Assembly (NCBI RefSeq): GCF_965641715.1
Contig: NZ_OZ282453.1
DNA length: 64,000 nucleotides
Strand: one strand, 5' to 3'
Origin: Escherichia coli
GTDB taxonomy: Bacteria > Pseudomonadota > Gammaproteobacteria > Enterobacterales > Enterobacteriaceae
A program made the position numbers. Every line of letters begins with the position of its first letter. The stretch's first letter is position 1. Below are positions 42,001 through 45,000 of this stretch, one piece after another.

Positions 42001-45000
42001 GATCATTAATCATGAGCTGACTTATACCGGTGATACCACGGTAGAGAATGGCGTTCTGATTGTCGGTGATGATTCAGTCACCCGTGCCGCTGGCGCGACG
42101 TTGTCAGGGTCCAAAAACATTCATGTTCTTAATGGCGGCACACTGAGTGGGCTGGGGACCGTTTCGGGTCAGGTTAATAACCAGGGAACACTGGCATCAC
42201 TGAATGCTCTCTCAGGTTATGAAACGGCAGAGGCGGGCAATTTTACCGTTGGCTCACTGACCAATACCGGCGTCATTCGTCTGGCCGGTGGTAAGACAGG
42301 AAATACCCTGACCGTAAATGGCGATTACACTGGTGGCGGTACGTTAATTATCAATACCGTGCTGGGGGATGATACTTCTGCCACTGACAAACTGATTGTC
42401 ACGGGTAACACCTCCGGTGATACCGGCGTGGTGGTGAATAATGTCCGGGGCCAGGGGGCTCAGACCGCTGACGGCATTGAGATTGTGCATGTCGGTGGGC
42501 AGTCTGACGGTAACTTCAGACTGCAGAACCGTGCGGTGGCAGGGGCATGGGAATATTTCCTGCATAAAGGTAATGCGGGTGGTACTGACGGTAACTGGTA
42601 TCTGCGTTCTGAATTGCCGCCAGAACCACAACCGCAGCCGCAGCCACAACCGCAGCCACAGCCACAGCCACACCCCACGCCGGATAAACCTGTACAGAAG
42701 GTCTATCGTCCGGAAGCGGGCTCTTATATTGCGAACATAGCGGCAGCCAACACGCTGTTCAACATCAGAATGCACGATCGTGAGGGGGAAACTTACTATA
42801 CCGATGTGTTTACTGGTGAGAAGAAAGCAACAAGTATGTGGATGCGTCATATCGGCGGTCATAATCGCTGGAAGGACAGCAGTTCACAGCTGAATACGCA
42901 AAGTAACCGTTATGTTGTGCAACTGGGTGGCAGCATTGCGCAATGGACTGACGGTCAGGACCGTCTGCAACTGGGGATTATGGCCGGTTATGGAAATGAG
43001 AAGAGTTCCACGACATCCTCGCTTTCGGGATATAAATCTAAAGGTGCGATCAATGGATACAGCACCGGTTTATACGGAACGTGGCAGCAGAATGACGGTA
43101 ATGACAACGGGGCTTATGTCGATACCTGGATCCAGTACGGATGGTTTAATAATACCGTTAATGGTGAAAAACTGGCTGCGGAGTCCTGGAAATCCCGTGG
43201 ATTTACCGGTTCAGTGGAAGCGGGTTATACCTTTAAAGCCGGCGAATTTACCGGTAGCCAGGGTAGTCACTATGACTGGTATATTCAGCCGCAGTCCCAG
43301 ATCACGTGGATGAATGTAAGAGCCAGTGAGCATACGGAGAAGAATGGCACGAAAGTTCAGCTCAGCGGAGACGGTAATATCCAGAGTCGTCTGGGCGTCA
43401 GAACTTACCTGAAAGGTAAGAGTGCGTCTGATGATATTAAGGCGCATCAGTTTGAGCCATTTGTGGAAGTTAACTGGATCCATAATACACGGAGCTGGGG
43501 TGTCAAAATGGATAATACGGCACTCAGTCAGGACGGAGCTACAAATATTGCTGAAGTCAAAACGGGTGTTCAGGGTAAATTGTCAGATAACCTGAATGTC
43601 TGGGGCAATGTTGGTGTTCAGGCTGGCGATAAAGGGTACAGTGATGCCCAGGCAATGCTGGGTATTAAATATATATTCTAATCACACAGTGGCAGGAGGG
43701 GACCTCCTGCCACCTCAGGGTTGTCATAATGAGTTCTGTAATGAAATTTTCTGTTGTTAATGCAGTAGTGCTGCTGTTGCTGATTGTACTTACTGGTGTT
43801 TTTTATATGAAAAAGTCAAAAGAAATTGCAGTTGTTAATATCGATGCTATTTATAATCAGTCTACCGCCGGAGACATGGCCAGAAAGCATCTGAATGAGG
43901 TTAAGAGTATTCTTGAAAAAGGATATGAGGATGCGCAAAAAGCATTCGCAGATAACGCGAATAAAGAGGCGCTGCTTCTTGATGCCAGACAAAAACTGGA
44001 ACGACAATATGTTATTGAGGAAAATAGCGCAAAAATGGTGTTATCCCGTGCGATAGATAATGCCATAGGCACATGGAGAAAAGACAATCCTAAAAATATT
44101 GCCGTATTGTCTTCAGGTGTTGTGCTTGCGCATAACGAGTCAGCTGATATCACCAAAGAAGTCATGACTTTGGTTGAAAAAGAAAATCTGGTTTTTAATA
44201 AATTACCCAAAGTGGAAGTGCACAATAAGAATGAAGAGAAACCAGAACAAAGTAAGTAATCACTAGATTCTGACGATTTCCAGAAGGGAGATTCAGCAGG
44301 CCAGCATCTGTAATCATTCAGATTTGCTGGCTTGCTGCTAAATATGGTTGCTAAGAAAAATAGCAGGCCAGTAATTTATTCAGATTACTGAATATAATAA
44401 TTTTTCAGGAACGGTTATGCTGAAGGTAGTATGTTTAATAGACACAATTATTTGCTGTGTCTAATATGAGGTGACATTTTTATGATCACTGACCAGCAAG
44501 ACTGACCCGTATTGATTAGCCTGATTATTGGCAACTTATTGGGGTAGTCATTTTGACATCGAATGGGGGAGGTTTCCAGTTAAGTTCACGAATGCATGAT
44601 GATTTGCGTTCACATATCGAAGTACTGGTTGGCTATACTAAGGATTTTAAGATAACTCACTGATTGTAAGTGGGTTATTGCGAGGGGGATGATAGATGGT
44701 GTCCCCTGCAGACATCTACTTGAAGCAGCAGGGGATTGATTGGAATGGTGTTTTTTAGATGTGAGAAATATTTTACCCGCTATTTTACCCATTGGCGCGG
44801 CTTAAGAGCTTATTTTTGAATTCACAATGGTCACGATATAACCATCTTGCTCGACCGTGGATAACTTTGGCTTTTGGCAGGTCGCCGGACTTAATCCGGT
44901 CGTAGATGAAGGTTTTACCAAAGCCAGTATCAGCCATGATGAATTTCAAATCAACCAGGGAATCAGGCTGTAGTTCGTGTTGCATGAGTGCTATCTCCGA

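Follow-up and report, generated by a model that had tools for sequence, protein, structure and literature searches.

A Skp/OmpH-like gene directly downstream of upaE in Escherichia coli encodes a candidate helper for a giant autotransporter adhesin

The gene that directly follows upaE in the E. coli DNA analyzed here (a stretch of 64,000 nucleotides, hereafter the window) encodes a small protein with remote homology to the periplasmic chaperone Skp. Relatives of this protein recur beside autotransporter adhesin genes in distant bacteria, a genomic pattern that points to an overlooked candidate helper for these adhesins. The reading that we favor, with a probability of roughly 55%, is that the Skp-like protein is a periplasm-facing, membrane-held holdase that is cognate to UpaE and is produced from a phase-variable transcript. 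The OmpH/Skp label was already present in databases.

A preliminary description of this DNA had placed a Skp/OmpH-like reading frame right behind the autotransporter gene. Indeed, an ORF occupies exactly positions 43729 to 44259, separated by 47 bp from the upaE stop codon (43681), and its assignment is supported by profile-profile and family-profile comparisons as well as by the predicted fold (Table 1). RefSeq labels differ among genomes ("OmpH family outer membrane protein," "membrane protein," or "hypothetical protein"), and in some genomes the start is assigned to an alternative in-frame ATG at 43741 (M5). The Shine-Dalgarno sequence is weak. Compared with orthologues from Salmonella enterica subsp. 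diarizonae, a plasmid, and metagenomic contigs, the ORF shows dN/dS values of 0.13 to 0.37 at saturated synonymous divergence and therefore, judged by sequence comparison, is a real gene under purifying selection. In E. coli, 250 genomes have it intact, and in one of these upaE is interrupted by IS1.

Table 1. Features of the upaE unit and its surroundings in the 64-kb window
Feature	Coordinates	Strand	Description and basis
ipuB	32853..33422	-	Tyrosine-type DNA invertase; RefSeq name in strain A30
ipuA	34170..34799	+	Tyrosine-type DNA invertase; RefSeq name in strain A30; PMC6083910
ipuR	35117..35737	+	Regulator of the LuxR/GerE type; first in the phase-variable unit; PMC6083910
upaE	35762..43681	+	2,639 aa; AIDA-type classical autotransporter adhesin with extended signal peptide; presumed client; RefSeq name
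Intercistronic stem-loop, upaE stop to Skp-like ORF	43689..43713	+	11-bp GC-rich stem, 3-nt loop, no U-run
Skp/OmpH-like ORF	43729..44259	+	ATG start, 176 aa; ORF list
N-terminal hydrophobic segment FSVVNAVVLLLLIVLTGVFY, codons 7-26	43747..43806	+	Predicted signal-anchor or uncleaved signal peptide
Skp-like domain, codons 32-162	43822..44214	+	AlphaFold secondary structure; hhalign to Skp; family profile to solved OmpH
Strong stem-loop, 35 nt past the Skp-like ORF stop	44294..44337	+	Candidate 3' end of the unit, putative role

The upstream gene product carries the RefSeq name "phase-variable autotransporter adhesin UpaE." Its N terminus (MNKIYKVIWN...VVSEL) is of the ESPR type, and the Salmonella orthologue contains the Pfam domains ESPR and Autotransporter. 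The ipuS switch lies between ipuA and ipuR (PMC6083910), and in strain A30 the ipuR position is annotated as "helix-turn-helix transcriptional regulator." The UpaE unit also occurs in CFT073, Nissle 1917, and ATCC 25922. The earlier wording "island-borne" for the Skp-like gene is loose: the block ipuB-ipuA-ipuR-upaE-ORF is indeed a low-GC accessory segment located between dsdC and tRNA-Arg, but the mobile element that adjoins it within the window is a separate lambdoid prophage.

In two UpaE papers, PMC6083910 among them, UpaE is described as the product of a two-gene ipuR-upaE operon, and the expression assays in both covered ipuR and upaE only. The Skp-like ORF is never mentioned in either paper, in line with the initial impression that it had not been described for this uropathogenic locus. 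Our literature search on Skp-like/OmpH genes adjoining autotransporters, or on the CFT073 locus tags, returned nothing relevant, which is weak evidence, most subscription journals lying outside its coverage. We infer that the ORF is co-transcribed with ipuR and upaE. A scan of the gap between upaE and the ORF found no promoter-like site on the plus strand and no canonical terminator. The hairpin in this gap (centroid, -21.9 kcal/mol in RNA folding) was considered as an intrinsic terminator and rejected, since it has no U-run and is not called by the terminator scan. Its stem is maintained through compensatory changes in four related loci with differing sequences (L003, L005, L007, and L009); this was read from direct folding of five sequences, the MAFFT alignment having aligned the L005 stem by sequence and not by structure. 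The hairpin could also lower read-through instead of stabilizing the transcript. Past the ORF, the RNA between 44255 and 44400 folds with a z score of -5.15, and no shuffled sequence folds as well; the strong stem-loop found there falls outside the strict terminator pattern.

Remote homology to Skp and a shared fold are clear, though direct comparison of sequences gives weak evidence. The Pfam OmpH model (PF03938) matches the protein itself below threshold (E = 0.0027, 18.4 bits, model positions 2 to 107 of 141), and an unrelated DUF scores equally. Likewise, BLASTP against E. coli Skp gave no significant match, the NCBIfam models gave nothing relevant, and a PDB sequence search using a profile of close relatives only gave nothing useful, a broad family profile being needed. 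The profile of 139 family members matches solved OmpH/Skp structures at E values of 2e-6 to 1.5e-3, and PF03938 is matched at E <= 0.001 by 96 of these members. In hhalign, the Skp-like domain aligns with E. coli Skp over the whole mature Skp (residues 19 to 160) with a probability of 94.6% (E = 7e-8). The Skp sequence used for comparison aligns with the 1sg2/1u2m-type matches. The expected OmpH-family match is therefore found in the relatives, in the family profile, and in hhalign, but not above threshold in the protein's own Pfam search. A recent duplication of skp was rejected as the origin of the ORF, as the identity is only ~18%.

The Skp-like fold that had been anticipated is well supported by structure prediction. 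AlphaFold models the protein (pLDDT, 90.7; pTM, 0.75) as a strand, a long helical hairpin, and a strand, the domain elements being strand 32-36, the hairpin helices 46-72 and 79-119, strand 123-128, and helix 142-149. In a Foldseek search of the PDB, all of the top ten matches are of the Skp type, and no others fall below E = 0.1, the next one having E > 3; the top ten include 1sg2 and 1u2m (both E. coli Skp), 8gl8 (SkpA), and 4kqt. Every top match in AFDB50 is labeled Skp/OmpH. The protein is thus modeled with a Skp fold, i.e., a small beta body with a long alpha-helical hairpin "tentacle." When three copies were joined by Gly-Ser linkers in one chain, the model reached a pTM of 0.68; almost every 10-residue block in the three domains had a pLDDT of 80 to 96, and an extra body strand appeared that is missing from the monomer model. 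Judged by such modeling, the protein may be trimeric. As an aside, a pTM of 0.68 for a single-chain construct exceeds what we would expect for three independently placed domains.

The hydrophobic N terminus is modeled as one helix (residues 3 to 27). The segment is kept in orthologues; in locus L007 it is recognizable but out of frame upstream of P0029, due to an N-terminal frameshift. Upon sequence inspection, no Ala-X-Ala site, no lipobox, and no Cys in the first 30 residues were found, and the protein is probably membrane-anchored. The sequence KKSKE comes right after the hydrophobic segment, so the positive-inside rule gives no clear support to a periplasmic location of the domain. Among the N termini of 137 family representatives, a lipobox is found in 69 and another hydrophobic N terminus in 57. 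The Pyramidobacter copies carry ordinary cleavable signal peptides and, for that reason, would be soluble. Residues 31 to 165 have a pI of 5.96, typical of the family (median, 5.9; below 7 in 75%), whereas the pI is 9.5 for the basic Skp and 4.5 for the acidic UpaE passenger. Given an acidic-to-neutral domain and an acidic passenger, electrostatic capture of the Skp style is unlikely.

The co-occurrence with the autotransporter gene that the preliminary description led us to expect is nearly one-to-one in complete E. coli genomes (n = 5,426), the Skp-like gene being present in 252 (~4.6%) and the upaE 3' end in 250. It also persists over divergent orthologues and other type V partners. Salmonella diarizonae has the same module of recombinase, GerE regulator, autotransporter, and Skp-like ORF. 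Elsewhere, a Skp-like homologue of 44% identity sits after an autotransporter sharing 86% identity with UpaE, one of 51% identity after an autotransporter sharing 76%, and a phage-plasmid carries the autotransporter/Skp-like pair behind different regulators. A profile search of species-representative contigs with the alignment of close relatives (A3) yielded no confirmed relative. Adjacent and co-oriented placement relative to a type V adhesin gene is conserved over lineages, with the exceptions given below.

The contig search produced loci only with the distant-branch alignment (A5), and these inform on the wider family rather than on the UpaE clade. Homologues of 25 to 33% identity immediately follow the autotransporter of a Yersinia ruckeri plasmid, a BigA-like autotransporter, enterobacterial cassettes of a trimeric autotransporter plus TpgA, and Pyramidobacter trimeric autotransporters. 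Among the type V partners are an autotransporter with 28% identity to UpaE and trimeric ones that share only the signal peptide. In some of the enterobacterial cassettes the Skp-like gene lies directly 3' of a tpgA-like gene, and its neighbor in locus L012 matches NF047726 (TpgA) at 1.7e-44. Megablast of the cassette of trimeric autotransporter, TpgA, and Skp-like gene against complete E. coli genomes found none, although one E. coli protein record exists. Other relatives have a different context: P0028 has type III secretion surroundings, and no remnant of an autotransporter was found upstream of it; P0180 has housekeeping neighbors; and in several Mailhella and Synergistaceae loci the upstream region showed no gene for type V secretion. 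For the copy in Pyramidobacter L021, neither Pfam nor NCBIfam matched the ORF that lies upstream. The Skp-like ORF falls into an OmpH branch that is both separate and widespread; Desulfovibrionaceae and Synergistota members of it are annotated plainly as Skp.

How does the protein compare with known systems? With Skp (HlpA/OmpH; PDB 1sg2 and 1u2m; PF03938) it shares the body strands and long helical hairpin arm and remote homology over the mature protein, and it may be a trimer as well. The housekeeping skp gene lies in the bamA-skp-lpxD cluster and is generally present across strains, whereas the Skp-like gene is an accessory gene between upaE and tRNA-Arg. Its product is only about 17 to 20% identical to Skp, its arms are ~18 to 20 residues shorter, and its domain has a pI of ~6.0 against ~9.5 for Skp with its positively charged arms. 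Furthermore, it has no evident signal-peptidase site, whereas the signal peptide of Skp is cleaved. The idea of a diverged copy of the soluble housekeeping chaperone was hence abandoned: an identity of ~18%, shorter arms, an acidic domain, an anchor-like N terminus, and a separate OmpH branch all speak against it. Help from housekeeping Skp itself is documented for autotransporters, IcsA and the SPATEs among them (PMC8151025, PMC12523085).

In genomic arrangement, the Skp-like protein is closer to SadB and TpgA, small envelope proteins encoded as co-oriented neighbors of large type V adhesin genes (Salmonella SadA and Acinetobacter AtaA/Ata, respectively) in a conserved pairing. These are accessory factors co-transcribed with trimeric autotransporters, SadB being trimeric and tethered to the inner membrane, and they are the only cognate co-transcribed autotransporter helpers discussed in a review of the field (PMC8151025). 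In contrast to these factors, which have been described only for trimeric (Vc) autotransporters, the presumed client UpaE is a classical (Va) one. No relationship in fold to either factor, or in sequence to the TpgA model, was seen, the only significant solved-structure matches of the Skp-like protein being Skp-type. TpgA (NF047726) combines a BamE/SmpA-like N-domain with an OmpA_C peptidoglycan-binding domain, neither of which is matched here, and SadB has a lipobox Cys and is encoded upstream of its trimeric autotransporter, whereas the Skp-like protein lacks a lipobox and is encoded downstream of a classical one. A Skp fold that serves one secretion system, and not general chaperoning, is seen in SkpA of the Flavobacterium type IX extended translocon (8gl8), chains C, E, and G of which are among the top structural matches of our model at an identity of ~10 to 12%. 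The system there is type IX and here type V, and SkpA is a stable translocon subunit.

In the reading that we favor, the Skp-like ORF would be expressed from one phase-variable transcript with ipuR and upaE, and its Skp-fold domain would be exposed in the periplasm, held at the inner membrane by the N-terminal hydrophobic helix. There, a small, probably trimeric, three-armed cage might meet the 271-kDa UpaE at the exit of the Sec translocon, the extended signal peptide of UpaE being thought to delay release from Sec. The cage may then keep the barrel domain or a stretch of the passenger unfolded and soluble until it reaches BAM/TAM. The outcome would be a higher yield of displayed UpaE, or less envelope stress, when the switch is ON, without the cage being strictly required. 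In this scheme, the topology, the trimer, the identity of the client, and the activity as a chaperone are what we infer. The scheme, like the dedicated chaperone suggested in the preliminary description, has to accommodate the finding that upaE cloned alone into K-12, with a reverse primer ending at the stop codon, gave surface-exposed UpaE, biofilm formation, and matrix binding (Battaglioli et al. 2018, PMC6083910). K-12 does not carry the Skp-like gene, which is therefore not essential for display. Any role in display would be auxiliary, at most helping, or was masked in these experiments by over-expression and by the housekeeping chaperones Skp, SurA, and DegP. SadB and TpgA are likewise helpful but not essential for display.

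The K-12 result would also suit a generalist or back-up outer-membrane-protein chaperone of the Skp type that has no preference for UpaE and is linked to it through shared ancestry of the DNA block, as would the family members in housekeeping and non-autotransporter contexts and the branch called simply Skp in Desulfovibrionaceae and Synergistota. However, the slot directly after a type V gene recurs with unrelated partners (the 28%-identical, BigA-like, and trimeric ones), the pairing holds where the Skp-like gene has dropped to 44% identity and the autotransporter is still at 86%, and it recurs behind different regulators on the phage-plasmid. Inheritance as a block is therefore insufficient by itself, and we regard such a generalist role as unlikely. 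Rather improbable, in our view, is a structural or regulatory partner that stays with the assembled adhesin or BAM/TAM in the manner of TpgA-AtaA, acts as a spacer or retention factor anchored in the inner membrane, or serves as a sensor linking the production of UpaE to envelope signaling. The sequence contains no signaling or peptidoglycan-binding module beyond the Skp fold in Pfam and NCBIfam searches, and the soluble Pyramidobacter copies with their ordinary cleavable signal peptides do not fit such a role, even though enterobacterial cassettes place the Skp-like gene beside a TpgA-like protein, which is known to stay bound to the adhesin (PMC12523085), the type IX extended translocon has the Skp-like trimer of 8gl8 as a stable component, and a membrane tether with an acidic surface is unusual in a diffusing holdase.

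It is very improbable that the protein has no extracytoplasmic role at all, with the domain in the cytoplasm owing to a reversed anchor, or with the gene poorly or not expressed and decaying as a passenger. The positive charges of KKSKE after the hydrophobic segment, the weak Shine-Dalgarno sequence with a stable hairpin just upstream, and the frameshift in the relative L007 could be taken that way. Yet the dN/dS values at saturated synonymous divergence, the intact gene in the E. coli genomes, including the one with upaE cut by IS1, the overwhelming presence of export signals in family members, and the preservation of the hairpin through compensatory changes all argue against decay or a cytoplasmic location. 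Should the gene prove dispensable, it would be a correctly annotated and unremarkable paralogue of the OmpH family.

In conclusion, a cognate UpaE holdase is the account that we prefer for the Skp-like protein. Classical autotransporters are usually presented as needing general envelope factors only, i.e., Sec, Skp/SurA/DegP, and BAM/TAM. If true, our reading would extend cognate chaperoning to these proteins and would provide a compact system in which to see how a 270-kDa passenger stays secretion competent. More tentatively, and with doubts somewhat outweighing our confidence, there could be a class of Skp-fold chaperones, shared across phyla and dedicated to type V secretion, that are short-armed, acidic, usually tethered by a TM segment or a lipid, and encoded right after giant Va/Vc adhesins, sometimes together with TpgA. 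Such proteins might provide a private periplasmic relay between Sec and BAM/TAM for cargo whose size or tendency to aggregate overtaxes the housekeeping chaperones. E. coli would then have its first example in the upaE-linked gene, as part of a three-gene phase-variable operon. Large-passenger display constructs might gain from co-expression of the Skp-like gene, and the UpaE unit in CFT073, Nissle 1917, and ATCC 25922 may best be studied as ipuR-upaE plus the Skp-like gene.

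The Skp/OmpH-like open reading frame (ORF) that follows upaE starts 47 bp beyond the upaE stop codon, and in some genomes RefSeq places the start at another in-frame ATG, at 43741. Sequence comparison shows that the ORF encodes a genuine protein maintained by purifying selection: against orthologues in Salmonella enterica subsp. diarizonae, on a plasmid, and on two metagenomic contigs, dN/dS is 0.13-0.37, and the distant pairs approach saturation at synonymous sites. The GC content of the region is 36-42%. In prophage-free strains, tRNA-Arg and yfdC lie about 440 bp 3' of the ORF. 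In the window, where no tRNA-Arg was detected, a lambdoid prophage takes their place, and positions 44300-64000 match E. coli strain TL20 at 100% identity. The Pro-Gln repeat of UpaE (PQPQPQ..., a linker before the translocator domain, at about 42560-42620) is apparently strain-variable in length, as matches to a 1,651-bp query over this region span 1,628 to 1,681 bp across genomes.

Features of the upaE-ORF region, with equivalent stem-loops in numbered comparison loci (L)
Feature	Position	Strand	Remarks
ipuB	32853..33422	-	
ipuA	34170..34799	+	
ipuR	35117..35737	+	LuxR-type
upaE	35762..43681	+	2,639 aa; RefSeq 'phase-variable autotransporter adhesin UpaE'
Intercistronic stem-loop	43689-43713		perfect 11-bp GC-rich stem, 3-nt loop, no U-run
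Skp/OmpH-like ORF	43729..44259	+	ATG start, 176 aa
Hairpin 3' of ORF	44294-44337		35 nt past ORF end; stronger than intercistronic stem; region fold z=-5.15
Lambdoid prophage	about 44700-64000		Bet, replication protein P, TerL
AlpA-like gene of prophage	44785-44985		
tRNA-Asn and tRNA-Thr of prophage	58147-58302		
Equivalent stem-loops, 10-11 bp	L003 9757-9783; L005 5693-5718; L007 2711-2735; L009 11960-11984; L017 1041-1064		

The preliminary description had assigned the product to the Skp/OmpH family, and direct comparisons bear this out poorly. Pfam OmpH matched the ORF protein over part of the model only (E=0.0027, 18.4 bits), level with an unrelated DUF; an NCBIfam scan gave no meaningful match, BLASTP against E. 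coli Skp aligned a 13-residue stretch only (E=0.07), and a profile of close relatives matched no solved structure. However, when 1.84 billion cluster representatives were searched exhaustively with an HMM, 217 relatives emerged at E<=0.001, almost all 140-250 aa long, and an alignment of 139 of these (A2) settles the matter. PF03938 is matched at E<=0.001 by 96 of the 139 (best, 2.5e-14), and the family profile finds the solved OmpH/Skp chains 9yju (2e-6), 9nhx (2.2e-6), and 4kqt (5.7e-6) as well as E. coli Skp (1sg2/1u2m, 1.3-1.5e-3); hhalign against E. coli Skp gave a probability of 94.6% (E=7e-8), with Skp residues 19-160 aligned. The expected fold was likewise recovered. With A2 as input, AlphaFold2 gave a model of mean pLDDT 90.7 and pTM 0.75 (helix 3-27; strand 32-36; helices 38-44, 46-72, and 79-119; strand 123-128; helix 142-149), for which the best ten Foldseek matches in the PDB are without exception of Skp type (Caulobacter CC_1914, E. 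coli Skp, and SkpA of the type IX secretion translocon [8gl8]) and the eleventh-ranked has E>3. The top fifty in AFDB50 are each labelled Skp/OmpH or uncharacterised, and a 98%-identical E. coli entry there bears the automatic name 'Chaperone protein Skp'. A single chain of three flexibly linked copies reached a pTM of 0.68, with pLDDT 80-96 in nearly all 10-residue domain blocks and an extra body strand absent from the monomer model; this modelling supports, but does not prove, a Skp-like trimer.

The protein nevertheless differs clearly from housekeeping Skp, with which it shares 17-20% identity. Its arms are shorter, as indicated by some 18-20 residues of gaps in the alignments, and its exported domain of about 133 aa has a pI of about 6.0, compared with 141 aa and 9.5 for mature Skp; the median pI across the whole family is 5.9. 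The N terminus consists of a 20-residue hydrophobic stretch, FSVVNAVVLLLLIVLTGVFY, followed by KKSKE and modelled as a single helix; it is conserved among orthologues and holds neither an Ala-X-Ala site nor a lipobox. Of the 137 family representatives, 69 carry a lipobox, 57 another hydrophobic N terminus, and 11 neither, so that the family domain would be extracytoplasmic and usually tethered. The UpaE-linked protein most likely has an uncleaved signal-anchor, formally of either topology given the lysines that follow the hydrophobic helix. The gene call for family protein P0029 (L007, 2760-2830) lacks the hydrophobic N terminus, which is encoded directly upstream but leaves the reading frame at a T7 run, either through an assembly error or through a real frameshift; the window carries T6 and A5 runs (43802-43818) at the same spot.

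Among 5,426 complete E. coli genomes, 252 carry the ORF (CFT073, Nissle 1917, and ATCC 25922 being examples), 250 carry the 3' 1.65 kb of upaE, and 248 have the junction intact; no diverged second copy of the ORF was found in them at the DNA level. The anticipated co-occurrence with the autotransporter thus holds, and the pairing recurs beyond E. coli chromosomes. In E. coli 042 (L001, 7227-14660), the 5' portion of upaE and a piece of oxc are lost to an IS1 insertion, yet the ORF is intact and annotated. We found neither a plus-strand promoter-like site nor a canonical terminator between upaE and the ORF, and the two genes would be co-transcribed. Four other UpaE-type loci have a perfect stem at the matching position; that of L007 differs at three base pairs, each altered on both sides, and that of L005 is formed anew from another sequence. 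Because such stems are retained across divergent loci, and a comparable GC stem separates a BigA-like gene from its Skp-like neighbour, a conserved and functional intercistronic RNA structure is likely. It may set the ratio of the two products, via 3'-end protection or partial attenuation. The hairpin beyond the ORF may mark where the transcription unit ends, or it may be a repeat element close to the attachment site at tRNA-Arg. A related motif, AGCAGGCCAG...TTCAGATT, recurs about 70 nt farther on.

This Skp-like branch is linked to type V secretion repeatedly and with unrelated partners, though not in every case. Salmonella diarizonae has an equivalent module of recombinase, GerE regulator, autotransporter, and ORF, the small protein being 63% identical, and on two metagenomic contigs homologues of 44% and 51% identity lie directly 3' of autotransporters 86% and 76% identical to UpaE. 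The IncY P1-like phage-plasmid pAPEC201602 (NZ_CP127299.1, 3388-12543) also carries a UpaE-like autotransporter and Skp-like gene (91% DNA identity at the autotransporter 3' end; 77% amino acid identity for the Skp-like protein), standing behind FaeA/PapI and PapB/FocB-type regulators instead of ipuA/ipuR, so that the pair moves as a unit and has been rewired to another phase-variation system. On a Yersinia ruckeri plasmid, a lipoprotein homologue (33% identity) is encoded 24 bp 3' of an autotransporter only 28% identical to UpaE, and a second lipoprotein homologue (30%) follows a BigA-like autotransporter. This Y. ruckeri autotransporter, on plasmid p17Y0159.2 (717-6307), is apparently split. 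The end of a 183-aa ORF containing type V secretion repeats is 11 bp away from the start of a 1,675-aa ORF, neither ORF starts with a recognisable signal peptide, and the gene may be frameshifted.

Trimeric autotransporters are partners as well. In a cassette found at three loci (L012, 814-5792; L014, 1039-5994; L015, 422-5377), one with an extended signal peptide is followed by a TpgA-like BamE/OmpA protein and, last, a transmembrane-anchored Skp-like protein, two such homologues being 25% identical to the ORF protein; the cluster includes one E. coli protein record (HGT9981123.1), and megablast found no such cassette in complete E. coli genomes. Pyramidobacter sp. C12-8 (Synergistota) has at least six copies of the branch, three directly 3' of trimeric autotransporter genes. 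Others lie at contig starts, as if assemblies broke in repetitive adhesin genes upstream, and the two intergenic regions examined (L024, L025) contain terminator-like stems and then extended -10-like motifs. One Desulfovibrio genome encodes an autotransporter barrel 1.7 kb upstream of the Skp-like gene. As counterexamples, the gene for family protein P0028 (45% identity) has type III secretion genes around it and no trace of an autotransporter upstream, P0180 is encoded amid housekeeping genes, and several Mailhella and Synergistaceae loci lack an upstream type V secretion gene.

Databases already carry the family assignment, though inconsistently: RefSeq labels near-identical genes 'OmpH family outer membrane protein', 'membrane protein', or 'hypothetical protein', and UniProt uses 'Chaperone protein Skp'. 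As the preliminary description suspected for the UPEC loci, we found no published account of the ORF as third gene of the UpaE unit; nor did we find one of its short-armed, acidic, mostly tethered OmpH branch, or of branch members repeatedly beside classical (Va) and trimeric (Vc) adhesin genes. Two UpaE papers treat ipuR-upaE as an operon of two genes (PMC6083910, PMC6458436), and the second of them assayed only dsdC, dsdX, ipuR, and upaE. A 2021 review of type V folding control names SadB and TpgA as co-transcribed putative chaperones, both for trimeric autotransporters (PMC8151025). Neither a 2022 review of Skp-like virulence factors nor a 2022 autotransporter classification mentions cognate Skp-like genes, and nothing further emerged from literature mostly outside the subscription journals.

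The proposal of a dedicated chaperone for UpaE stands in part. Recurrent linkage and the Skp fold speak for it, but pUpaE, whose insert stops at the upaE stop codon, conferred surface UpaE, biofilm formation, and matrix binding on K-12 MS427 (Battaglioli et al., PMC6083910), so the ORF is not essential for display under overexpression. We slightly favour (probability about 0.55) a cognate, inner-membrane-tethered holdase, produced with UpaE when the invertible switch ipuS, between ipuA and ipuR, is ON. It would engage UpaE on exit from Sec and thereby improve UpaE yield or lessen envelope stress. UpaE, like the enterobacterial trimeric partners, has an extended signal peptide, which is thought to lengthen the stay at Sec (PMC8151025). 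Electrostatic capture in the manner of Skp is unlikely for the acidic UpaE passenger, because the surface of the ORF protein is itself acidic.

A nonspecific back-up Skp hitchhiking with the locus, for which the K-12 result speaks and against which the repeated pairing with unrelated adhesins stands, seems unlikely to us. A stable structural or regulatory partner, like TpgA or the type IX SkpA that is itself among the closest structural matches, is a rather improbable alternative. That the gene is cytoplasmic, unexpressed, or decaying is very improbable, beside the signs of purifying selection and the prevalence of export signals in the family, even with the lysines noted above. To the specialist, a cognate chaperone may appear plausible rather than shocking, and with the ORF-upaE pair the idea that a classical autotransporter has its own chaperone could be tested directly and cheaply.
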